A DNA stretch of 64,000 bases from a virus. Taxonomy: Duplodnaviria; Heunggongvirae; Uroviricota; Caudoviricetes. The stretch covers positions 273,301 to 337,300 of IMG/VR virus record IMGVR_UViG_3300026302_000005; one strand, written 5' to 3'. How positions within the stretch are numbered: position 1 is the first letter of the stretch; the number at the start of each line of letters is the position of its first letter. The notes below the pieces were generated by a model. The model had not been told where the DNA came from, did no database searches, and saw only the letters and a program-made list of their open reading frames with translations. Made by a program: the position numbers and the translations under genes. Positions 24,570 through 60,809 of this stretch are shown here, one piece after another.

Positions 24570-24884
24570 TTATGCAGCCGGATCATCGTGGGGTTGGCAG
24601 GAGAGTTCCGTGATGACGCCGGTTTGAACACCGTCATCAGAAAGCATTTCGTTCAGCCCGGTAACGACGGGGCTGGTAGGGGTGAGTTCCATCTCACACA
24701 CATCAGCGGTCTCGAACGTAACACCGTCGTATACGAGTGTTTGACACGTATCGGTGACCACACCGGAGGACAACATACAAACCGTGGCAAGAATCTCAAA
24801 CATGACAGACTCCCTGGTTGATTCGTTTTCGATGTGTGTAATATACAAGAAACCGACCGGTGAGTCAACACCAATCGGTTTCAT
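24570..24884 (-). CDS. hypothetical protein
   Basis: ORF. Confidence 0.35.
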   Translation of the reverse strand: MKPIGVDSPVGFLYITHIENESTRESVMFEILATVCMLSSGVVTDTCQTLVYDGVTFETADVCEMELTPTSPVVTGLNEMLSDDGVQTGVITELSCQPHDDPAA

Positions 24885-24911: not shown

Positions 24912-25160
24912 CTACAACCGAGCATCCTCTAGGATCGCGACACGCAGTTCTTCGATCTGGGCACCCGTCAGGGTGAGATCACCGAAGTCCAGCGGCTTAC
25001 TGTGACCAGCCTGAATGGCAGCTTCCATCGCCAGGACTTCACCAGCCACATCCTCCAGGGACGCAGCCTTACCAGCATCGGTCAGATCAAAGCGCACATC
25101 CACAAGACCGGCAGCGGCCTTGAGCTTGTAGAGGGCTTGAAGTTGTTCGACATTCGACAC
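24912..25160 (-). CDS. hypothetical protein
   Basis: ORF. Confidence 0.35.
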   Translation of the reverse strand: MSNVEQLQALYKLKAAAGLVDVRFDLTDAGKAASLEDVAGEVLAMEAAIQAGHSKPLDFGDLTLTGAQIEELRVAILEDARL

Positions 25161-27726: not shown

Positions 27727-27803
27727 TGGCGGCTCCGGTGGGACTCGAACCCACGACCAACAGTTTTAGAGACCGCTGCTCTAACCAACTGAGCTACGGA
27801 GCC
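27727..27803 (-). tRNA. amber suppressor tRNA (anticodon CTA, reads UAG); Trp-like body (loop CTCTAAA versus E. coli tRNA-Trp CTCCAAA; discriminator G)
   Basis: Acceptor GGCTCCG/CGGAGCC, D-arm GCTC-AGTTGGTTA-GAGC, anticodon stem GCGGT/ACTGT, T-arm GTGGG-TTCGAGT-CCCAC. Confidence 0.7.
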
Positions 27804-27804
27804 A

Positions 27805-29004
27805 TTGCATAAATACATACGTGTTTCTGATAGAAGAGTCAACCCCATAATGCGCCTGTTACAACTCATTGAAGGGACTTCCGACTACATTGACAGGGCA
27901 AAGGATGCTCGTCGAAACATAAGTCTGGATTCCGTTGTTCAAAAAGCCTTGGATATGGCACAGACCGGTCAGTTTACAGAAGAGAGAACTAGGGCCATCA
28001 ATTTTGCTGCCGAAGTAATCCGATCCGGTAAACCCGCCGCTGTGGTGGGTAGAGAATGGGGCTATAAACCGCACAAATCGTTTAACCACAAACATATTGG
28101 ATTGCGACTGTTGATGCGGGCATATACGGTGCTTGGGGGCACACGATCTGGTGTTGATTTCCAATCCCTGATCGAAGCCCCTATTGGAGACTTTGGCACC
28201 ATCGGAGATTTCTCCGATCCCAACGCCTCGATCCCAAACGCTGCGGATCGTCGTGCTGTTACTGCTGAACCGATGATTCGTCGTATCAAGCTGGCTTGGG
28301 AAAAGACGCCATTTCTGTTCAACCTGTTTTTTGCCAACGTTCCCGGAGCCCAAAAGTGGGTAGAGCAGGGATATGTGAGTGCCGGAACTGTTCGATCCGA
28401 GTTTCCGGACATGGCCAGTCGTATCATGGCTGGAAAAGCAGACAAAGCAATCACTGTGGTATTCACCAACAACCTGGGGGATGCCGGGATCAGCTTTACC
28501 CCGTGGATCATGGCACACCGTATCAGCCACGCAATGGTGGTTCCCAACAATACGAATGATCCTCGGCAGGGTGTTCAGAACCGGGCATTCTACACGGGAT
28601 CGGAGAAACTATACACGTTCACCAACAGTCTGATCTATCAGATGTTCTCAAGGTCAACGGTTAGAGTGGGGTCTGATACCCATGAGCAGATATATCGGCA
28701 CATCTACGAATATATCGGCACCATGAAGTCTGCCAGATCGAAACTGCTGGCCCGACCAAATGAATTCTATCACGAACTGTTTGCCCAATACCTACTGAAT
28801 GGAGACATTACGTTCAATGCCTTCACTCCGGAATTTCTGCTGAACTTTGCGGAAGACTCGGGCACCGGGGAACAGCCCCATATCGAGCACCTCGATACCA
28901 TGCTGGGTGAAATGAATGAGACCCTTGCGGGTCTCAAACAGGAACTCCTGAACAGCTTTACGGCTGGGCTATCCCACGCTCAGGGCAAAGTCATCTTCAT
29001 GTGA
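27805..29004 (+). CDS. hypothetical protein (399 aa)
   Basis: Plus-strand ORF. Possible paralog of 25602..26744 with a degenerate H-motif (HRISH). Confidence 0.45.
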   Translation: MHKYIRVSDRRVNPIMRLLQLIEGTSDYIDRAKDARRNISLDSVVQKALDMAQTGQFTEERTRAINFAAEVIRSGKPAAVVGREWGYKPHKSFNHKHIGLRLLMRAYTVLGGTRSGVDFQSLIEAPIGDFGTIGDFSDPNASIPNAADRRAVTAEPMIRRIKLAWEKTPFLFNLFFANVPGAQKWVEQGYVSAGTVRSEFPDMASRIMAGKADKAITVVFTNNLGDAGISFTPWIMAHRISHAMVVPNNTNDPRQGVQNRAFYTGSEKLYTFTNSLIYQMFSRSTVRVGSDTHEQIYRHIYEYIGTMKSARSKLLARPNEFYHELFAQYLLNGDITFNAFTPEFLLNFAEDSGTGEQPHIEHLDTMLGEMNETLAGLKQELLNSFTAGLSHAQGKVIFM

Positions 29005-30112
29005 TCTGTTCCCATGGGTAGTCGTCATAGCCGAAATGCCCACGTGCAGCGGTCTGACGATAAAGGGGACGACGGAGATCGAACCGCTTGATGATGCCGG
29101 AGGGCGACAAGTCGATGGCGTAGTCTTCCAGGATTTCCCGGACCTCTTCCTCGTTCATACCATCCACATGCACCGAAACAGGCTTGGCAACACCGATGGC
29201 ATACCCAACTTGCACTTCGATGTCTCGCATACCATAGACGGCCTTGCAGAGCGTCTTTGCCACATGGCGGGCTGCATAGGCGGCAGATCGGTCAACCTTG
29301 GTCGGGTCTTTGCCAGAGAAAGCGCCACCACCGTGGCGAGCCATACCACCGTAGGTATCGATAATGATCTTCCGACCGGTCAAACCGGAGTCTGCAATTG
29401 GTCCACCAATCGTCCACGGCCCAGCCGGGTTGAGGAAGTATTTCGTATTCGGGGTGACCAGGTTCTGGTATGGCTCAAGCCCACGACGAACCACATCTTC
29501 CAGGTTCGAACGAATCAGACCATACATGCGTTCGGTAACATCGGTATGCACCGATGACAGAACCACGGTGTCGATCTCGATGGGCTCACCCGTATCGTTG
29601 TCATACCGTATCGTGACTTGTGACTTCGCATCCGGTCCCAGCGGGCCCTGACGACGATCCATCTTATGGGCATTGGTGATCGAGCGGGCCACCATCAACG
29701 GCAACGGCATCATCTCGGGCGTATCGTTGCAGGCATACCCGAACATCAGGCCCTGATCACCGGCACCCAGGTTCTCACCATCAGCGGTAACACTGTCACC
29801 GATCTCCCGGGACTGCTCCGTGATGTTGTGAATCTGCTTGACCTTCCACGGATCAAACCCCCATTGAGGATCATCATATCCAATGGCCGTCAGCGTATCT
29901 CGGACGATCTTGCTGATGTCGAGTTCTGCATTGGTGGTCAGTTCCCCGAACACCATAACAGTATCGCCTTTGACAGCAGATTCGATGGCAACACGGCTCA
30001 TCGGGTCCTGACGAAGGCATTCATCAAGAACGGCATCGCTGATCTGGTCACAGACCTTATCAGGGTGGCCATCAGCCACACTCTCCGACGTGAATAGGTA
30101 GGAACCTTTCAT
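28997..30112 (-). CDS. metK: S-adenosylmethionine synthetase
   Basis: N-terminus MKGSYLFTSESVADGHPDKVCDQISDAVLD and GGGAFSGKDPTKVDRSAAYAARHVAK are diagnostic of MetK. Confidence 0.9.
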   Translation of the reverse strand: MKGSYLFTSESVADGHPDKVCDQISDAVLDECLRQDPMSRVAIESAVKGDTVMVFGELTTNAELDISKIVRDTLTAIGYDDPQWGFDPWKVKQIHNITEQSREIGDSVTADGENLGAGDQGLMFGYACNDTPEMMPLPLMVARSITNAHKMDRRQGPLGPDAKSQVTIRYDNDTGEPIEIDTVVLSSVHTDVTERMYGLIRSNLEDVVRRGLEPYQNLVTPNTKYFLNPAGPWTIGGPIADSGLTGRKIIIDTYGGMARHGGGAFSGKDPTKVDRSAAYAARHVAKTLCKAVYGMRDIEVQVGYAIGVAKPVSVHVDGMNEEEVREILEDYAIDLSPSGIIKRFDLRRPLYRQTAARGHFGYDDYPWEQIT

Positions 30113-30459
30113 AGATACTCCTGATAGTGATATTGCAGATGAACCAGAGATATGGGGACTGATCCAAGATTTTCAACCACCCGGGACGTCATTCGATCCA
30201 GAAATTTGATGAACCGTGGGCACCCCAGCAGCCCAGGTCCGGTGAGATGGTTGAACCGGAATGGATCGGCTGGATCGATGGTCTTAGCCTGCTCGATTCG
30301 TCGTATCCATCGAGCACCATAGGTCTTACGAACATACTGCCGAACCACGGCAAGCTTGTTAAGGCTCAACCGATTCAAACCAATGCTATCGTTTCCGACT
30401 AGCATGAGTTCCGCTCTGGTTGGATGTAAGGCTGGGTATTGAAGTGCTTCTAGATTCAT
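30109..30459 (-). CDS. hypothetical protein
   Basis: ORF. Confidence 0.35.
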   Translation of the reverse strand: MNLEALQYPALHPTRAELMLVGNDSIGLNRLSLNKLAVVRQYVRKTYGARWIRRIEQAKTIDPADPFRFNHLTGPGLLGCPRFIKFLDRMTSRVVENLGSVPISLVHLQYHYQEYL

Positions 30460-30490
30460 ACGAATCAGTTAGTATACCTGAATATGGATG

Positions 30491-31051
30491 TCAAGTCGAT
30501 TTTGTTGCAGGTCGTGGACGAGATGCGTTTTTACCAATCGTGCTGGAATCATCCGGATCAGATGGAGAAAACACGTAAGGCTTTTTATGCAGCCGTGAGT
30601 TGCCACCGGCATCCGCCATCTTCTTGGAGTTGAATGACACAGAGTCCAGACCCCAATCGTCAACGCTACCATCCTGGTTGATCATGGTGATTTTTTCACC
30701 ATCACTGAACACGATGGCTTTCTGATCATACGCCTTCATCAGCTTGATGCCCATCTCACGAAACCGGTCAAGAGCATCCGGGGGTAGATGTTTGGCTCGG
30801 GGGAAGATCAGCAGCGATTGTTCCGGAATGCCATCCCATTCCCCCGTTTGGCGAATGTATCCGACCGGTAGCTTAGACAGGTCGGTCTTCATGCACTGCA
30901 AGGCCAGTTTGTTCTGGGAGGTGCTACGGTATTCACGCTCCGGGCTAATCGCAATGAAGGGGGTTCCATCAACGACATGGGTGACGATTCGGGACAATCC
31001 TGCCCGCTCTTCAATCCCTGCCAGTCGTTTGATTTCAGCAATGTAATCCAT
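30491..31051 (-). CDS. hypothetical protein (186 aa)
   Basis: ATG at 31051 with an AGGAGAA RBS. Confidence 0.45.
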   Translation of the reverse strand: MDYIAEIKRLAGIEERAGLSRIVTHVVDGTPFIAISPEREYRSTSQNKLALQCMKTDLSKLPVGYIRQTGEWDGIPEQSLLIFPRAKHLPPDALDRFREMGIKLMKAYDQKAIVFSDGEKITMINQDGSVDDWGLDSVSFNSKKMADAGGNSRLHKKPYVFSPSDPDDSSTIGKNASRPRPATKST

Positions 31052-31076
31052 AGTGGTTCTCCTATGGATATTTATG

Positions 31077-31105
31077 GAAAAGGGGCCCCAGTGGGGCCCC
31101 TTCTG
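31077..31105. terminator. GC-rich perfect hairpin (AGGGGCCCC-AGT-GGGGCCCCT) downstream of the flotillin gene
   Basis: Inverted repeat with T-rich flanks. Confidence 0.5.
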
Positions 31106-31124
31106 ATTATCACTGGTGGGAGGA

Positions 31125-32849
31125 TTACTTCCCGGTCTTGCGGTCACCCATCGGTGCGCCACGCGGGTCTTGGGCCGGGGCGGGCTTTGCGGTGTTCAGT
31201 TTGCGCAGGAAGTCACTGTCGGCCAGGTCGATGGCCGTATCCAGCGGATCACGTGCGGTCTTCGGCGTCGAGATGCCGTCGAGAACCCCATTCAGCCCCT
31301 CGCTGATGTTGACCCCGGCCTGTTGACCAAGAGCTTGAACCAGCGGGAGTTGCAGGCCCATGCTGAGGATCGCGTCTGCGACTTGACCAGCAGCACCACC
31401 ACCGTTGCCAGTGGATTCGCCACCACCGATGTTTCCGCCGCCCATGCCGGTAACGTTGGTCAGGGTGATGCGGTCGATGTTCTGGGCAGGAGCCACCATT
31501 TCGGCGATGATCGCGGGCAGAGCTTCGAGGCGAGCCAGTTGCAGCTTCATCTCGATGATTTCCCCGGTCAGGGCGTTTTCGGCGGCGACCAGTGCGGTCT
31601 TACCTTCGGCTTCGGCCAGGGAGATGGCCAGGGAGCCTTCGGCTTCGGCCTTCTGGGCATCAGCTTTCGCCTTTGCACCGATCAGCACTGCATCAGCGTC
31701 GGCCTGGGCTTTGGTCAGCACCGCAGCAGCCGTATCTTCGGCAGCAGCACGTTGGGTTGCAGCAGCCACACGGGTAGCAGTTGCGGTCTTCTCGGCTTCC
31801 TGTTCGGCCTGGATGATCGCGATCTTCTTGTTACGGTCGGCCACGGCGACTTCACCAGCAGTCTTGACGGCTTCTGAGGCGGAGACCGCTTCGGCACGAG
31901 CAAGGTCGGCTTTGGCACGAGCTTCGGATTCCGCCATGGACTTCTCGTTGACCGCGATCTTACGATCTTGTTCAGCGATTTCCAGGGCCTGCTCTTGGGC
32001 GATACGTGCAGCCTCTTCGCGGCGAGTTGCTTCGGATTGGGCAACAGCGATTGCGGCCTTCGATTCAGCCGTCGCAGTGGACACGGCTTGCTCTTGGGCG
32101 ATCTTCGCTTCTTCCGTCTTCTTCTTGATGGCCAGTTCTTCAAGAACCGCAGTCTGCTCGGTCGTGGCAACCTGCACACGAGCTTCCGATGCGATCTGGG
32201 CGCGTTTCTTTTCGGAGTCAGCCACGACCTGGGCCAGCTTCTGCATACCAACGGCGTTGAAGGCGTTGTTGGCATCCATCTTGTTGAACGGGGTCTGGTC
32301 CAGCATGGTCAGCGATACCGATTCCAGTTCCAGGCCGTTCTGCACGAGGTCTTTGTCCACGGCATCCTGCACCTTTTGGACGAATTCCGCCCGCTTCTCG
32401 TGCAGTTCATCCATGGTCATCTGGGCACCGACCGAACGCAGGGCGTCAACCAGCTTGTCTTCGACCAGCGAACGCAGAGCCTGCGGATCGGACGTCGAGT
32501 TGCCAAGGGTCTTTGCAGCCTGGGTGATGCCTTCTTCATCCGGTTTGACACGGACGTAGAACTTGGTGCCCACATCGACACGCATACGGTCGGCGGTGAT
32601 CAGGGCTTCGGCACCAGAGCGAATGATCTCCAGACCGAGGGTCTTCATGTTGACCCAGGTCAGTTCGTGCATCATCGGGATGATGAGTGCGCCACCGTTC
32701 TGGATGACTTTCTTGCCACCAGCACCGGTGCGGATCATGGCCCGCTCGGGGGTGGTGCGCTTGTAGAGCCGAGCGATGATGAAACCGAAGATGACGATGG
32801 TCACCAGGGCAATCACTGCCGGAACTCCGAGGGTTAGAAGCGTGTTCAT
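31125..32849 (-). CDS. flotillin / SPFH (band 7) family protein, YqiK-like
   Basis: N-terminal TM helix, SPFH domain (IIPMMHELTWVNMKTLGLEI...), long Ala/Glu-rich coiled coil. Confidence 0.75.
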   Translation of the reverse strand: MNTLLTLGVPAVIALVTIVIFGFIIARLYKRTTPERAMIRTGAGGKKVIQNGGALIIPMMHELTWVNMKTLGLEIIRSGAEALITADRMRVDVGTKFYVRVKPDEEGITQAAKTLGNSTSDPQALRSLVEDKLVDALRSVGAQMTMDELHEKRAEFVQKVQDAVDKDLVQNGLELESVSLTMLDQTPFNKMDANNAFNAVGMQKLAQVVADSEKKRAQIASEARVQVATTEQTAVLEELAIKKKTEEAKIAQEQAVSTATAESKAAIAVAQSEATRREEAARIAQEQALEIAEQDRKIAVNEKSMAESEARAKADLARAEAVSASEAVKTAGEVAVADRNKKIAIIQAEQEAEKTATATRVAAATQRAAAEDTAAAVLTKAQADADAVLIGAKAKADAQKAEAEGSLAISLAEAEGKTALVAAENALTGEIIEMKLQLARLEALPAIIAEMVAPAQNIDRITLTNVTGMGGGNIGGGESTGNGGGAAGQVADAILSMGLQLPLVQALGQQAGVNISEGLNGVLDGISTPKTARDPLDTAIDLADSDFLRKLNTAKPAPAQDPRGAPMGDRKTGK

Positions 32850-32873
32850 GTGAGTTGTAGCTCCACTAGAAGG

Positions 32874-33632
32874 TTACGATTGAAGGCGAGATTGGGCGGT
32901 ATCAAGGCGAAGAGCCTCATAGACCGGCCCCGGTCCACGAAGAACCAGAACGTCGGTTCCTTGTGGTAGTTCAGGCTCCCCAGCATACGGGATCACCCGG
33001 ATGTTGTGGAGGTTTCCATGCCGGTCGCGGACATCGGCACGAGCAGGAAGATCAACACGGGCAGTGCCAATGGCAATCTTTCCGACCGAGCCACCGAGCG
33101 AGCGGCGTGATATGATATCGGTGGTGGTCTTGGGGATCAGACTGGCGAATGCACGACTGATCCACTTGGTGCCGATCAGGGCCGGGACAAACGCCGCAGC
33201 CGATGCGATCCATCCGAACAGCATGAACCCGAGCAGGCTTTGCAGAACGAACTGACCCAGGAAGCCGACGATGGAAAAGCTTGCAGCAAATCCGATCAGC
33301 CACACCATCAGCGGGACCGAACCGATTTCAAACCATTTGAGAACAGATTCGAGGGCTGACACATCGCCAACATCTGCGACATTCGCATCTGCATCAGCAC
33401 CACCCATGTCGAAGGCAATACGAATGTCCCCTTCGACATCGGCCACGTTGACATCGATTTCCGGGTCCAGGTCGATGTCAGCATCACTGTCACCACCGAG
33501 AATAGAGAACCCCGTGGTGATCGACATGATCACTTCCAACACCAGCACAGCCAGCAGGAGAGCCGCCGCAATGCCGAATGGATAGAGCGGGCCACCAGAG
33601 GTAAAGAGCAGTTCCATAGAGAGTTGTCCCAT
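32874..33632 (-). CDS. NfeD-like / YqiJ-like membrane protein (partner of flotillin)
   Basis: Multi-TM N-terminal region plus a C-terminal OB-like segment (GTDVLVLRGPGPVYEAL), located immediately upstream of the flotillin gene. Confidence 0.55.
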   Translation of the reverse strand: MGQLSMELLFTSGGPLYPFGIAAALLLAVLVLEVIMSITTGFSILGGDSDADIDLDPEIDVNVADVEGDIRIAFDMGGADADANVADVGDVSALESVLKWFEIGSVPLMVWLIGFAASFSIVGFLGQFVLQSLLGFMLFGWIASAAAFVPALIGTKWISRAFASLIPKTTTDIISRRSLGGSVGKIAIGTARVDLPARADVRDRHGNLHNIRVIPYAGEPELPQGTDVLVLRGPGPVYEALRLDTAQSRLQS

Positions 33633-33651
33633 CGTTGTCCCTCGTTTCGAA

Positions 33652-34152
33652 TCAGGTTGGGTTGCTTATCGCATGTGGTTCAGCATTCGTCAATGGCAAG
33701 TCGTAGACCACTACATGACGATCTTTCATTGCGAACTCAATGATCTGGGAGATAGTTTTCCAATCACCCCCACCCAGGGACGATCCGATCCGAGGAATCG
33801 CCACAACCGGGATGTCATGATAGTCGTCATCGATATTCTCTGTGATCCAGTCGTAGACTTGAACAAAGATCGATTCGATTCCCTGGTAGCTCACATACTG
33901 TTTGCCATCACGACCGAACCACTCCTGGGACACCGCATTGGCGATGAACTTCCCCTTGGTTGGCACCCAGACGATCTGCCCGACACGGAGACCGGATAGC
34001 TCGTATGCGGCCCGATATCCGGCATATGCTTCGGGGTAGACTTCACGAATGGCCTTCGCCACCCCCGAGCCCATCACGCCCTGAGCGTTGCAGCCGTGAA
34101 GGATGATGGGTTCATCAGCGACCATGAGATCGCCCGTTTTGTAGATCAACAC
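33652..34152 (-). CDS. macro-domain protein (ADP-ribose binding / O-acetyl-ADP-ribose deacetylase-like)
   Basis: Motif ILHGCNAQGVMGSGVAKAI. The probable start is a TTG at 34152. Confidence 0.65.
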   Translation of the reverse strand: MLIYKTGDLMVADEPIILHGCNAQGVMGSGVAKAIREVYPEAYAGYRAAYELSGLRVGQIVWVPTKGKFIANAVSQEWFGRDGKQYVSYQGIESIFVQVYDWITENIDDDYHDIPVVAIPRIGSSLGGGDWKTISQIIEFAMKDRHVVVYDLPLTNAEPHAISNPT

Positions 34153-34260
34153 TGTGGGAGTTCCTGAAATGGTAAGGGCCTACGCTTTCACGTAAGCCCC
34201 CTGTTGTGTCTGGTATTCTGTAACAGACAATTTAGGCAGGGGAGCCCGAATTGTCAAGGG

Positions 34261-34776
34261 TCAGAGACCCAATTTTCGCAAGGCCACCGGTGTCAGAGCA
34301 GAAATCATGTCGGCACCCAGTTGTTCCGCCGTGGGGGTCTTCCCTTCGGATATCAGCTTGGCTGATTTGCTGGTTGCGGCCACGTAGATGCCCTCGATTG
34401 GTCCACCCACGTAGGACATAGCGTCCATCACGTAATCTTCTCGGGACGGCATTGCACCCCGCAGCACGGCCTGTGCGGTCTTCGGGATCAGGATCGCATA
34501 CAGCATGTTGGCCGCAGCAATGCTGTCGATCTCAATCTGAACACCCTGAACAGTGATCGTGGCACCATTCACAAATCGTGCAGCCAGGTTGAACCCACCA
34601 TCGATGATGTTGTTGGCTGTTTGGATCGGGCTGGTGACAGCCGACACCCCGGCCCGAGCAACCATACCGGCACCCCCAACAGCCGCACCCACGGCGGTGT
34701 CCACGGTATCAGCGGCAAACCCGGTCAATCCAGTCGGGTCAAGATCAGTGATCGATTTGAATAGGCTTCCAAACAT
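34261..34776 (-). CDS. hypothetical Ala/Gly-rich protein
   Basis: ORF. Confidence 0.4.
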   Translation of the reverse strand: MFGSLFKSITDLDPTGLTGFAADTVDTAVGAAVGGAGMVARAGVSAVTSPIQTANNIIDGGFNLAARFVNGATITVQGVQIEIDSIAAANMLYAILIPKTAQAVLRGAMPSREDYVMDAMSYVGGPIEGIYVAATSKSAKLISEGKTPTAEQLGADMISALTPVALRKLGL

Positions 34777-34790
34777 GATGTATCCTTCGG

Positions 34791-34994
34791 TCAGATTGCG
34801 GGTTCAAGGCGTTGTGCGCCACAGGTCAGTGCGAAATACGCTTCCGCACCAGTGGTGTCGTGGACAACATCGACCCGGTTCGTTCCGTTGCAGGTTTTCA
34901 CCGTCACAGTTTCTCCAAGTTTGGCAAAACCCGGGGCTCCCATTCCGGTAATCCGTAGTTTGTCACCAACCTTGGTCTCAGAAAACTTGATCAT
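34791..34994 (-). CDS. small hypothetical protein
   Basis: ORF. Confidence 0.3.
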   Translation of the reverse strand: MIKFSETKVGDKLRITGMGAPGFAKLGETVTVKTCNGTNRVDVVHDTTGAEAYFALTCGAQRLEPAI

Positions 34995-35218
34995 CCATGG
35001 ACCCCTTCGTCATGATCGTGTCCACAATGCTCGCAATTATGCGTTTCTTTTTCGAAAGCGTCAAGCGCAATCTGATTGAGATTACCAATAATCTCAGCCA
35101 GATTCAACACGAGGATGCGAATGCGATCCAATTGCAGGCGAAGCTGCGTCTCAGCGACCTCGCCATACAAGGTTTCCAGGAGGTCTGTTGCTTCTTTGGC
35201 CAGTGGGTGTGATGCCAT
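34991..35218 (-). CDS. small protein with a C-terminal Cys/His metal-binding tail (CEHCGHDHDEGVHG)
   Basis: ORF. Confidence 0.3.
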   Translation of the reverse strand: MASHPLAKEATDLLETLYGEVAETQLRLQLDRIRILVLNLAEIIGNLNQIALDAFEKETHNCEHCGHDHDEGVHG

Positions 35219-35219
35219 G

Positions 35220-36194
35220 CTAGATGCCCTTTTTGATAAGCCGCTCGAACTCTCGAAGCCGCTTGTAAACGGAGATCAATTCGACAATCGTCGGCCACGA
35301 TTTCACCAGAAACTGCAAGCTGGTTTCGACCCGACCGAATGCACGAACGATCTGTTGAACCACACCCAGTGTAACCAGTCCACCGGCGATGGTAGGTGCC
35401 AGAGCCAGATATGGGACGATCACCATACCTTGGAAGTATGACCAACGAAACATGTTGAAATACATGTAGTGGAAGTAGGATCGGTAGTGAACCTTGCGGA
35501 CACGATCATATAGGTCCGTTAGCACGGGTTTGTCGATCATGATGGGATCATTCTCGGCCAACACCAGCCGCTTTCGATATGCAGCCTCTTCCTTTTGAAT
35601 GTCATACTCGATGCCAGGGAGCTTATAGCCCACGATGGCCAGCGCAATGGTGCCACCCAGTGCTGCAATGATCGCCACCCACACCAGACCGTGGGATACC
35701 TCTCCCACCCATGGAAGCATGGTAACGCTCTTGGACAATTCCCATAGAATCGGGACGAAGGCCACAAGGGTCAGGATGGCATCCAACAGACCAACACCCA
35801 GGCTTTCCATGATCCTGGCAAACTTCAAGGTGTCTTCCTGAACTCGCTGCGATGCCCCCTCGATGGTTCGAGCTTTCCCGTAGTGTTCGTGGTAGTATTC
35901 GGTCATACTGGTGCGCCACCGGAAAATCCAGTGGGACGTGAAGAAGTCTTTGGCAACCGAGATGACCACCCATAGCCCAGCTATACCAGCGAATGTGAAC
36001 AGCAAACTGATGAACTCGGCTTCGGTAACCGATCCAGGTTCAGTCAGAGCCTTCTGTAGGACGTCGTAGAAGGAACCAAACCACTCGTTGATCTGGACGT
36101 CAAGCTGAACCATCCACCAGGATGCGATGATGATCACCCCAGTCCCCATGATACTCCAGGGTAGCCACTTACGGGTATAGAAAAATCTGAACAT
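35220..36194 (-). CDS. sbmA: SbmA/BacA-family inner-membrane peptide transporter homolog
   Basis: Blocks RWRTSMTEYY, EGASQRVQEDTLKFA, AAYRKRLV and FHYMYFN match E. coli SbmA (recalled from memory). Confidence 0.65.
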   Translation of the reverse strand: MFRFFYTRKWLPWSIMGTGVIIIASWWMVQLDVQINEWFGSFYDVLQKALTEPGSVTEAEFISLLFTFAGIAGLWVVISVAKDFFTSHWIFRWRTSMTEYYHEHYGKARTIEGASQRVQEDTLKFARIMESLGVGLLDAILTLVAFVPILWELSKSVTMLPWVGEVSHGLVWVAIIAALGGTIALAIVGYKLPGIEYDIQKEEAAYRKRLVLAENDPIMIDKPVLTDLYDRVRKVHYRSYFHYMYFNMFRWSYFQGMVIVPYLALAPTIAGGLVTLGVVQQIVRAFGRVETSLQFLVKSWPTIVELISVYKRLREFERLIKKGI

Positions 36195-36253: not shown

Positions 36254-36796
36254 TCAGGTGTTCCGGTCGTAGTGACTGGCCCTGACTTGCTCAGGTCGAA
36301 TGACTATCGCCGCTTTTGGGAGATGAATCAGGACCTCATGTTCTACAATCCCAGACATGATATCACCCTCGCTGTCGTCATGATACTCAGCGGGTAGGTC
36401 TGGGAAGTAGAACAACACGTTCGCGGCTGGAAAATGCGATTCTATGATGATCGTTGGTAGACCATCACCTATGGTGTCGCCATAGAAATACTCCACCATG
36501 TCTTCATTGGTAGACCACGATGACACCAACCCGGTTTCATACCGGATTGGGCGTTTCTGTTCGATCAGTGTCACCCAATCCTGCTCGGGTATCGCAGTAG
36601 AACGGTATACCGTTCCTATTGAGGTCCGGACCATGCTTTTCAGTTCAGGGGCATGCTGTAGTAGAAAGTCTGTCAGAAACTTTTTGGTTCCGTCCACCCT
36701 AGCAGATGGTCGCATGGTGGACCACCTATGCAGCATATTGAGAAGATCACTTTGTGATTCCCAATCTACCCGCTCTACCAGATCACGAAGTTTCAT
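36254..36796 (-). CDS. hypothetical protein
   Basis: ORF. Confidence 0.4.
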   Translation of the reverse strand: MKLRDLVERVDWESQSDLLNMLHRWSTMRPSARVDGTKKFLTDFLLQHAPELKSMVRTSIGTVYRSTAIPEQDWVTLIEQKRPIRYETGLVSSWSTNEDMVEYFYGDTIGDGLPTIIIESHFPAANVLFYFPDLPAEYHDDSEGDIMSGIVEHEVLIHLPKAAIVIRPEQVRASHYDRNT

Positions 36797-37475
36797 TCCA
36801 CAACTCGTCCATGAAGCCTTTCATGTATTTACTGGCCGTCATGGTGCGGTTCGTGCCATGATGCTGAACTCGATCATCTTGGAATCGAATCGTCACAGTC
36901 TTATCACCACGCATTCCCGAGCCGACCTGAGCCTTGCGATCCGCAGCCATGTCCGCGTGTTGTGCGCCCTCTGCCATGCCATCCAGGCGGGCTTCCAGGG
37001 CCTCACGAGCCTCACGATAGCTGGTATCACGGGAACGGGTCTGACGGGCCTCCAGGAGCCCCGTGGGGACGTGTGTGAGCCTACAACTGTTCTGGTGCTT
37101 GTTCCGGTGTTGTCCACCAGCACCGGAGCCGCTGAACCATTCAACCTGGAAGTCAGAATCTTCGCGACAAAGATATGCGGGGTCAACCTGGCGATCTGGG
37201 TCAAGAACAGCAACGATGACCGTGCTGGTATGGACGCGACCGCGACGTTCGGTTGGGGGAACTCGTTGGATGCGATGGCCACCGGCAGCATACTCCAACC
37301 CAGATAGATCATCACCGATTACGGTAATCCGGATTCCGTGCTGGCCGTTATCCTCGGTTAGGTGTAGTCACCCATAGCGCACCGCCATGCGGCGATAGGC
37401 TTGTGCAAGGTCCTGCACAAACAGTTGGCTGTCTTTTCCACCTTCGGCGGATTTGATCTCAATGATCTTTTTCAT
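36783..37475 (-). CDS. prfH: RF-H (PrfH)-like peptide chain release factor homolog lacking RF domain 1; in-frame TGA at codon 36 (37368..37370) aligned to a conserved Trp of RF1
   Basis: GGQ motif (SGSGAGGQHRNK). PxT-type motif (GGHRIQRVPPTE). The upstream segment MKKIIEIKSAEGGKDSQLFVQDLAQAYRRMAVRYG-[TGA]-LHLTEDNGQHG aligns with RF1 [34 protein letters not shown]. RBS GGAGA upstream of ATG 37475. Confidence 0.6.
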
Positions 37476-52633: not shown

Positions 52634-53302
52634 CTATTCCTGGAAGTAGGGTGGGATGGAAGGCGTGGTGGATGCTGCCCCGACACTCCTGATCGGCACA
52701 TACAGGTGGTTCAGACTATCCGGATCAAGCGTCCCGTCGGCATTCAACCTGAACCGAACGATGGTGAGTTCTTGACCGATCTTGACTAGGTTCAGTTTCG
52801 TCTGCACGATCTGGGTGGGCTTTTCCTTGGACTCAGCACCGTCATCGTAGGTGATCGTGATGATCGCCGTAACTTCGACCGTCGGGTGGTTCCCAGCATT
52901 TCCAAACCAATGGATGTTGAATGCCCATTCCCCAGGAGGGACGCCACGAGAGAACATGACCTCATAGTTGCGCCCGGAGATGTCTGCGTAGCTCCCAAGG
53001 TCATCTCGCACCAGGCTCAATACCACGCCGTTCTTGTTGGAGTATCCAACCGGTGGTAGCCCGGGGGATAGTCCCCACAGATCGATATCAGCGTTGTATT
53101 CATCAGGCCAGTAGATTTCGACCCGAACATTCCCACGATCCCGACGGGTGTCCTCAGCAACACTGCTGAGTTCTGGATTGTTTGGTTGTAGAATCAGGAT
53201 GATCAGGATGGCCAGAAATCCACCCAGGAGGCCGAGGACGATATCTCGGAACGCCACACTATGTTCTGGTTCGTCTGAACTATCATCAAACCGGCTCATC
53301 AT
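52634..53302 (-). CDS. ExbD/TolR-like biopolymer transport protein homolog (N-terminal TM anchor plus an extended periplasmic domain)
   Basis: N-terminal segment EHSVAFRDIVLGLLGGFLAILIILIL resembles the ExbD/TolR EINxxPxIDVxLVLL region. Overlaps the upstream MotA/TolQ-like gene by ATGA. Confidence 0.4.
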   Translation of the reverse strand: MMSRFDDSSDEPEHSVAFRDIVLGLLGGFLAILIILILQPNNPELSSVAEDTRRDRGNVRVEIYWPDEYNADIDLWGLSPGLPPVGYSNKNGVVLSLVRDDLGSYADISGRNYEVMFSRGVPPGEWAFNIHWFGNAGNHPTVEVTAIITITYDDGAESKEKPTQIVQTKLNLVKIGQELTIVRFRLNADGTLDPDSLNHLYVPIRSVGAASTTPSIPPYFQE

Positions 53303-60299: not shown

Positions 60300-60809
60300 C
60301 TAAGTTGGTGTCAATGGCATAAACCACCTGGTCTTTCGATCATACCGGATGTGCTGATAGAACTCGTAGAGATCGCTGAATCGCAGGGTGGGCTCAGGAT
60401 GTAACGTGCGAAAGTATTCAGCGATATCTGGATTGGATTCCGCATATCGTGCGGTGTGGGTCACATCCATGTCCTGTTCGATCTTGTAGTCGTATACGGT
60501 CTTGCCGATCCACAGAATGTTCCGATGGGGATCGTAAGTCCGATGATTCTCCACCCGACTTTTTCGGATGAGATCGGCCCGATCATCACCGGTCTTTCGA
60601 TACTTCCGCTTCAATCCATGCAGAAATGCATTGAGAGAAATGCCATGTCGGTATCCGGAGACGTCCACGGCTATTGCTTCGGTTCGGGTGTTGTCTCCCA
60701 GGGTCAACCCCTGGAAGACATATTCGTGCCATACCTCATGGGTGATGGGATCAATCCGCATCAGTTGCAGTTGTCGGTGCCGGTCGCAGCCGACAAGGCA
60801 TTCCCACAT
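60300..60809 (-). CDS. putative zinc metallopeptidase-like protein (HEVWH motif)
   Basis: HExxH motif; located downstream of the LemA-like gene. Confidence 0.35.
   Translation of the reverse strand: MWECLVGCDRHRQLQLMRIDPITHEVWHEYVFQGLTLGDNTRTEAIAVDVSGYRHGISLNAFLHGLKRKYRKTGDDRADLIRKSRVENHRTYDPHRNILWIGKTVYDYKIEQDMDVTHTARYAESNPDIAEYFRTLHPEPTLRFSDLYEFYQHIRYDRKTRWFMPLTPT

Follow-up and report, generated by a model that had tools for sequence, protein, structure and literature searches.

A predicted amber suppressor tRNA of likely tRNA-Trp ancestry in the tRNA set of a standard-code huge phage

Introduction

The closest analogue of the CUA tRNA gene analysed here is the pair of tRNA-Sup genes of XacN1, a cultured Xanthomonas jumbo phage of 385 kb (AP018399), which uses the standard code and carries two tandem CUA tRNAs in its tRNA array (Yoshikawa et al. 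2018, PMC5852040). In-silico read-through of all 18 amber stops of XacN1 revealed no targets to its authors (PMC5852040). Our tRNA gene comes from a stretch of 64,000 nucleotides of phage DNA (hereafter the window). As in XacN1, it is located inside a very large tRNA array, the code is the standard one and read-through targets were not found. The XacN1 Sup tRNAs are 78–80% identical to it and share the anticodon loop CTCTAAA and the T arm. However, the XacN1 genes form a tandem pair whose acceptor stems and discriminators (A73, G73) differ and whose anticodon stem is irregular, TAG stops are rare there (18 among 592 genes, against 13 of 83 in the window), and the flanking proteins that were compared are not homologous to those of the window. 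Unlike XacN1, our phage is known from metagenomes only. An apparent synteny with XacN1, suggested by a Band 7 protein and a large ORF located upstream of its Sup genes, was rejected, the large ORFs being not homologous. Within XacN1 (L001, 5913–6071), the tandem CUA tRNAs are identical over positions 8–65 and have entirely different acceptor stems and discriminators, as if the pair had been built for charging by different synthetases.

A CUA tRNA, a class-I release factor and translation genes are also found together in recoded phages (Lak, crAss-like, Agate, Jade and others), as they are here. In those phages in-frame TAG is present in many genes and the CUA tRNA is accompanied by RF2, whereas in our phage TAG is a normal stop in the genes examined and the release factor is of the RF1 type. 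It has been reported that TAG-recoded phages pair the CUA tRNA with RF2, that RF1 accompanies TGA recoding, that recoded stops cluster in structural and lysis genes, with code-change and replication genes and early regions left in the standard code, and that the route to recoding starts with codon depletion in low-GC phages (Borges et al., bioRxiv 10.1101/2021.08.26.457843). The same study reports standard-code relatives of recoded phages that carry suppressors, a category which our phage fits. An amber suppressor in a standard-code very large phage is an already known, unexplained habit.

The third comparable system is E. coli su7/supU, in which trpT carries the anticodon CUA. The route is the same as the one proposed here, namely the change of a tRNA-Trp from CCA to CUA by C35 to U, and both tRNAs have GGUCUC[C/U]AAAAC, G73 and the T loop TTCGAGT. 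The two are 71% identical overall. They differ in the D arm and in the acceptor stem, which is GGCUCCG in our tRNA and AGGGGCG in trpT; moreover, su7 arose from a host gene by mutation in the laboratory, whereas ours is a phage gene. The features that the preliminary description of this DNA attributed to E. coli tRNA-Trp (loop CTCCAAA, GGTCTC context, TTCGAGT and G73) match the trpT sequence of strain MG1655.

The window phage and its tRNA genes

The window has a GC content of 54% and contains 28 tRNA genes detected by ARAGORN, all 28 on the minus strand amid mostly minus-strand genes. All of these tRNAs encode CCA and follow bacterial discriminator rules, so that the G73 of the CUA tRNA is informative. 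ARAGORN finds no tRNA-Trp(CCA) in the window. The S-adenosylmethionine synthetase (MetK) encoded in the window is 100% identical to that on a contig of 375,951 bp, which identifies the source as a huge phage with a genome of about 376 kb. A megablast search with 20 kb of the window against GenBank phages gave no DNA-level match, and the CCA-adding enzyme of the window is 33–36% identical to those of Alphaproteobacteria jumbo phages.

Besides MetK and the CCA-adding enzyme, the window encodes an ATP-dependent ligase, a flotillin/YqiJ pair, an SbmA/BacA-like transporter, Macro domain, MT-A70, NadR-like and PnuC-like proteins, an AAA ATPase and a non-specific endonuclease. The gene content is made up of tRNA, auxiliary and early-type genes, and includes no structural or lysis genes. 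None of the window ORFs of at least 300 aa contains an aminoacyl-tRNA synthetase domain.

Structure of the CUA tRNA

The gene and its anticodon are located as follows.

27727..27803, minus strand: tRNA gene of 77 nt with anticodon CUA (predicted amber suppressor), G73 and encoded CCA (ARAGORN, Rfam and cloverleaf pairs)
27767..27769, minus strand: anticodon CUA, tRNA positions 34–36, TAG on the plus strand (ARAGORN and Rfam alignment)

ARAGORN places a 77-nt tRNA exactly at 27727–27803 on the minus strand, with anticodon cta at position 35. In a local run the Rfam tRNA model RF00005 scores it at 70.2 bits (E = 7e-16; gathering threshold 29 bits), which makes it the fifth-best of the 27 Rfam tRNA hits in the window. 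The alignment covers the full-length model (1–71) with no non-canonical pairs flagged and, independently of ARAGORN, puts C-U-A in the middle of the 7-nt loop CUCUAAA, after U33 (C32 U33 C U A A37 A38). The sequence reads GGCUCCG-UA-GCUC-AGUUGGUUA-GAGC-A-GCGGU-CUCUAAA-ACUGU-UGGUC-GUGGG-UUCGAGU-CCCAC-CGGAGCC-G-CCA.

The cloverleaf is canonical. The acceptor stem consists of 7 Watson-Crick pairs, the D stem of 4 bp, the T stem of 5 bp and the anticodon stem of 5 bp, two of which are G-U pairs. The D loop (9 nt) contains G18G19, the variable loop is TGGTC (5 nt), the T loop is TTCGAGT with the T-Psi-C sequence present, and the 3′ end has the discriminator G followed by the encoded CCA. ARAGORN, the RF00005 score and the pairing check thus bear out the canonical 77-nt tRNA with the loop CTCTAAA of the preliminary description, and both programs give the same CUA register and none other; the strand, which that description did not give, is minus. 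By its anticodon the tRNA is a predicted reader of UAG. A promoter and terminator scan around the gene found no expression signal adjoining it. A TTGACT-17-TATGTA motif nearby, spotted by eye, falls below the criteria of the promoter scan and we make no claim for it.

We consider it somewhat more probable than not (roughly 55%) that this gene encodes a structurally intact and probably functional amber suppressor, likely derived from a phage tRNA-Trp, which belongs as a sporadic accessory to the tRNA set of a standard-code phage of about 376 kb. A phage tRNA-Trp would have undergone the single change C35 to U (CCA to CUA), which is the route of classical E. coli su7/supU. After transcription and processing, a host synthetase would charge the tRNA, and the analogy to su7 suggests that the amino acid may be Gln and/or Trp. 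Charging of su7 with Gln and/or Trp is established E. coli genetics. The charged tRNA would compete with RF1 at UAG and cause partial read-through. Within the window and the relatives, UAG itself still acts as a true stop, and none of the genes there relies on its read-through. Because UAG is a minority stop, the tRNA looks tolerated or weakly useful, and it has the appearance of a sporadic accessory and not of a genome-wide code change. What the data show directly is the tRNA gene with its structure and anticodon, the use of the standard code in the window and the repeated, independent appearance of CUA tRNAs in related phages; Trp ancestry, charging and actual suppression are inferred.

Origin of the CUA tRNA

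The best whole-sequence matches of the CUA tRNA are a Morganella phage tRNA-Met (83%), the XacN1 Sup tRNAs (78–80%), phage Lys, Arg and Asp tRNAs and the E. coli tRNA-Ile. Matches of this kind say nothing about origin, since the T arm is generic and so is the D arm, which is of the Met/Ile/Lys type. Among E. coli tRNAs, trpT (71%) is hardly closer than aspT (70%). The support for a Trp origin comes therefore from a comparison with huge-phage Trp tRNAs and not from E. coli trpT.

For this comparison, 916 tRNAs of 82 related huge-phage loci, including 25 tRNA-Trp, served as reference. A position-specific naive-Bayes isotype classifier, built from the 674 non-redundant class-I tRNAs of these loci with the anticodon masked, has a leave-one-out accuracy of 90%. 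It ranks Trp first for the CUA tRNA (−57.8), ahead of Arg (−59.5), Phe (−61.2), Met (−61.8), Lys (−66.0), Leu (−76.5), Gln (−76.9) and Glu (−107.5). Of 642 non-Trp tRNAs, not one is classed first as Trp or scores as high for Trp as the CUA tRNA does. The Trp margin is +1.8 nats, where genuine Trp tRNAs usually have +11 to +30. Among the isotypes that are one anticodon change away (Trp, Lys, Leu, Gln and Glu), Trp is ahead by at least 8 nats. The acceptor strand reads GGCTCCG, against GGCTCGG in the Trp consensus of the panel.

The sequence context of the anticodon was searched in IMG/VR with the 17-nt pattern GTCT-NNN-AAACTGTTGGTCG, in which the anticodon is a wildcard, since a pattern that fixes C34 and A36 would be circular. 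Among the matches listed, the anticodon is CCA in at least 82, UCC (Gly) in at least 32, UGA (Ser) in at least 16 and another in at least 4, and only Trp tRNAs combine G73 with a short variable loop. G73 is present in 80/80 retrieved phage Trp tRNAs, as it is in the CUA tRNA. G73 is the major TrpRS determinant outside the anticodon. Descent from tRNA-Trp by C35 to U is what we regard as likely on these grounds. It is favoured because CCA needs a single change to become CUA, whereas Arg, Phe and Met would need two or three. Of the Trp derivation put forward in the preliminary description, the first rank of Trp, reached by 0/642 non-Trp tRNAs, stands; the margin is thin, a CCA orthologue was not found in the collections searched and E. 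coli trpT is no closer than aspT.

It is possible, with clearly less weight, that the tRNA is not derived from Trp and belongs instead to a horizontally spread jumbo-phage lineage of Sup tRNAs (XacN1-like), or comes from an Arg, Met, Lys or short Leu tRNA by more than one change. Sup1 and Sup2 of XacN1 are closer to it in overall identity than any Trp tRNA (78–80% against at most 75%) and have the same loop CTCTAAAAC and T arm GTGGGTTCGA-TCCCAC. However, the anticodon and acceptor stems of the XacN1 tRNAs differ, they classify as Met or Arg, apart from the CUA tRNA, and many isotypes of the window share the T arm. Arg, Phe and Met lie within 2–4 nats of Trp, the other CUA tRNAs of the panel classify as Asp, Met, Arg or Phe, and the anticodon-arm context is also seen in Gly and Ser tRNAs. 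Against Arg, Met and Phe stands the need for two or three anticodon changes where Trp needs one, and Arg tRNAs need A20 whereas the CUA tRNA has U20.

The exact acceptor stem and T arm are found again in tRNA-Leu(UAA/CAA) genes of Planctomycetota and Acidobacteriota, and the 3′ half of the CUA tRNA matched only such genes in bacterial genomes. A73 is the major LeuRS determinant in E. coli. A Leu origin was rejected: A73 is present in all of these look-alikes, the Leu score is lower than that of Trp by 19 nats, and the T arm is of a generic kind. We regard the match as a coincidence due to this widely shared arm.

CUA tRNAs in related phages

Two syntenic relatives of the window were identified through MetK, L021 (72% identity) and L022 (59%). 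In L021 the same variable slot contains a CUA tRNA (12873–12949), flanked by the MetK-adjacent opposite-strand ORF on one side and the homologue of window gene 24912–25160 on the other. It has a Gln/Glu-like D arm, A73 and an irregular anticodon stem. Its identity to the CUA tRNA of the window is 62.8%, compared with 89.8% for the syntenic tRNA-Ser(UGA), which makes it non-orthologous and suggests that the amber suppressor at this slot was independently gained or replaced. L022 has no tRNA in the slot.

The 916 tRNAs near the release-factor gene (see below) in the 82 related loci include six with anticodon CUA, none with UCA and one, dubious, with UUA. The six CUA tRNAs have all different bodies and classify as Asp, Met, Arg or Phe. 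CUA tRNAs thus appear recurrently and independently in related phages. A simple one-step neutral model, in which single anticodon changes occur in the tRNAs present, predicts CUA:UCA:UUA at 23:38:40, and the observed skew has P ~8e-4. Such a skew fits the purging of opal and ochre suppressors and the tolerance of amber ones, since TAG is a minority stop (11% in the 82 loci), and it argues that the CUA tRNAs are functional and not dead.

These data bear on a less favoured reading, in which a phage tRNA-Trp has just been hit by C35 to T, or is polymorphic at this position, has no selected role and will revert or decay. The CUA tRNA is a singleton: the same core (37–44 nt) with any anticodon has no match in IMG/VR and JGI metagenomes, and neither a CCA-anticodon orthologue nor a second copy was found in IMG/VR, JGI metagenome contigs or relatives, so the tRNA could be a very recent mutation. 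That it is one base from the Trp anticodon in a window without tRNA-Trp(CCA), and that no target genes were found in the window and related loci, points the same way. However, its body is far from typical phage Trp tRNAs (+1.8 against +11 to +30), which rules out a standard Trp gene that was copied only recently. The structural invariants are all preserved, the Rfam score is among the best of the window, and the amber-only bias together with the independent CUA tRNA of L021 argues for an active, at least tolerated, tRNA. A recent mutation without a role is, in our view, unlikely.

Stop codon usage

Codon-usage-scored gene calling in the window gives a coding density of 0.726 with code 11, which drops to 0.670 when TAG is read as sense and to 0.536 when TGA is; the standard code is therefore the best gene model. 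Length-only ORF density was not used to compare the codes, because removing any stop inflates it and it does not discriminate. The 83 genes of the window end with TGA (61), TAG (13) or TAA (9), and the median in-frame distance to the next stop is 19 codons after TAG against 18 after TGA. Three cases of a TAG followed by an in-frame ORF all resolve into separate genes.

60300–60809: TAG case 1, ends with TAG-TAG
52634–53302: TAG case 2, three codons before the ATG of a separate membrane protein
24912–25160 and 24570–24884: TAG case 3, with separate homologues in L021, two TGA stops between them and an own ATG in the downstream gene

In-frame stops were screened by all-against-all tblastn of the window and the 82 related loci, with the best-scoring frame only, as the unrestricted screen was swamped by antisense and off-frame alignments. 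Within best-frame homology the window has no in-frame TAG, its single hit being an artefact in an antisense frame of the release-factor gene, and no systematic in-frame TAG was found in about 525 kb of homology-covered sequence of the related loci. TAG makes up 19% of stops in CUA-bearing loci and 11% in the others. In the window and in the relatives examined, TAG acts as a regular stop. The preliminary description was right that TAG is not globally reassigned in the window, where code 11 is best and TAG ends 13/83 genes. Stop usage and in-frame TAG, which it had named as tests of recoding, were followed within the window and the 82 related loci, where the code-11 gene model and the best-frame screen both have TAG as a normal stop.

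The model of Borges et al. leads to another, quite unlikely explanation, namely that structural or lysis genes with in-frame TAG elsewhere in the genome of about 376 kb need the suppressor. Early and auxiliary regions would be standard in this model, and the phage suppressor would switch on the recoded late genes. The targeted or late suppression that the preliminary description suggested would be of this kind. Published recoded stops do cluster in structural and lysis genes, and the window consists of tRNA, auxiliary and early-type genes. The presence of CUA tRNAs of different origin in the same slot of our phage and L021 also hints at selection. However, conserved genes of the window and the 82 related loci contain no systematic in-frame TAG, and TAG is not depleted, neither in the window (13/83 stops) nor in the CUA-bearing loci (19% against 11%). 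The 54% GC of the genome does not agree with a recoding route that begins in low-GC phages, the accompanying factor is RF1-type where TAG-recoded phages carry RF2, L022 lacks a tRNA in the slot, and XacN1, which is fully sequenced, has CUA tRNAs but no targets.

The release-factor gene

The window also contains a release-factor gene with an unusual feature.

36783..37475, minus strand: short RF1-type release-factor gene of 230 codons, without domain 1, with PPT and GGQ and an in-frame TGA (Pfam PCRF tail and RF-1 domain; NCBIfam)
37368..37370, minus strand: in-frame TGA, codon 36 of this gene, at a conserved RF1 Trp (translation and alignment)

The gene scores 166 bits with the NCBIfam model prfA, 77 with prfB and 39 with PrfH. 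It aligns to residues 87–316 of T. maritima RF1, so that domain 1 is missing, and it encodes GGQ and an invariant PPT tripeptide of the RF1 PxT type. The SPF motif of RF2, as a recoding partner would have, is absent: the tripeptide is PPT and prfA outscores prfB (166 against 77 bits). Being RF1-type, the factor would terminate at UAG, which is opposite to the needs of TAG recoding. Judged by these motifs, the CUA tRNA and the RF1-type factor are not the known TAG-recoding module. The RF-like gene of the preliminary description thus exists (36783–37475) and proves to be RF1-type (PPT), expected to terminate at UAG. The link which that description drew between the tRNA and stop-codon recoding is not supported by the sequences covered, in which code 11 is best for the window and its conserved genes have no in-frame TAG, and the RF1 type of the factor contradicts it.

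The TGA at codon 36 is aligned to a conserved RF1 Trp (in 'ERKGW'). The N-terminal 35 residues before it are part of the decoding domain, and a working protein would therefore need read-through of the TGA. Relatives of the gene with 50–60% identity are encoded on 255 IMG/VR contigs, many of 350–578 kb. After correction of an alignment offset, an invariant Gly codon followed by TGA (GGN-TGA) was counted in 82/82 homologues examined (50–72% identity), with the next base mostly A. Because no opal-suppressor tRNA(UCA) is present among the 916 nearby tRNAs, a near-cognate tRNA-Trp is the likely decoder of this TGA. The gene looks like a case of programmed UGA read-through that gates a termination factor. 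Huge phages are known from the literature to encode RF1 and RF2; a description of an RF1-type gene with a conserved in-frame TGA was not found in the papers searched.

It is conceivable, though improbable, that the CUA tRNA and the short UGA-gated RF1-type factor are two arms of a phage termination-tuning system, which would set UAG read-through against termination and possibly control genes beyond the window. Synthesis of the factor, gated by the universally conserved in-frame UGA, would then depend on RF2 activity or on the supply of Trp-tRNA. Were this so, the phage RF1 with its conserved UGA gate would in its own right represent an undescribed case of programmed read-through or an undescribed sensor. 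The gene has more potential than the tRNA, and it would be a compact example of programmed read-through regulating a termination factor.

Suppressor tRNAs of phages are usually read as signs of an alternative code. Here an intact, predicted amber suppressor is present where UAG is an ordinary stop, beside an RF1-type factor that would oppose it, a case which cautions against taking a CUA tRNA by itself as a sign of recoding. Like XacN1, our phage lends support to the idea that in tRNA-rich phages amber suppressors emerge time and again and are tolerated. Such suppressors could provide the starting point for recoding at a later stage, or mildly manipulate termination in the host.

The pyrrolysine label

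ARAGORN names the CUA tRNA 'Pyl', which is the default label of the program for CUA. In a pyrrolysine tRNA the variable loop has 3 nt and the anticodon stem 6 bp, the D loop is very short, and G18G19 and T-Psi-C are lacking. This identity, for which only the CUA anticodon and G73 speak, is ruled out by the structure, in which the D loop has 9 nt and contains G18G19, the anticodon stem has 5 bp, the variable loop has 5 nt and TTCGA is present; moreover, no ORF of at least 300 aa in the window contains a synthetase domain.

Other features of the window and related loci

Isolated stops within strong alignments were seen in other huge-phage loci, namely a TAG against Gln at L076 7524 (346 bits) and a TAA against Gln at L029 3036 and L030 11611 (427 bits). 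Either true in-frame stops or truncated C-termini may account for them.

An auxiliary block on the minus strand (28997–36194) is syntenic in the window, L021 and L022, and comprises the SbmA/BacA-like transporter, the Macro domain protein, YqiJ, flotillin, two small ORFs and MetK. Such membrane and SAM-metabolism cargo is unusual in a phage.

Several tRNA genes of the window are themselves irregular. A tRNA-like sequence at 4436–4544 (minus strand) scores 38.5 bits with Rfam and was missed by ARAGORN; its D loop is enlarged by an insertion of 43 nt, its anticodon loop, GGAGCAA, has no U33, and it may be an interrupted or degenerate tRNA. The tRNA-Leu(CAA) at 9457–9535 (minus strand) is a short Leu gene without the long variable arm expected in a bacterial tRNA-Leu. 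Leu tRNAs of 77–79 nt without the long arm are also present in tRNA clusters on Thermoanaerobaculia and Acidobacteriota MAG contigs (L011 36–112, L017 2461–2769), and 74-nt Leu(UAA) look-alikes in Phycisphaerae genomes have the same acceptor stem as the CUA tRNA. At 10057–10773 and 17144–17309 (minus strand), the tRNAs for His, Asn, Tyr and Met are each present as two neighbouring genes, one conventional and one odd. The odd members include a tRNA-Asn of 86 nt with a long variable arm (10325–10410) and a tRNA-Met with a TGCGA T loop (17233–17309).
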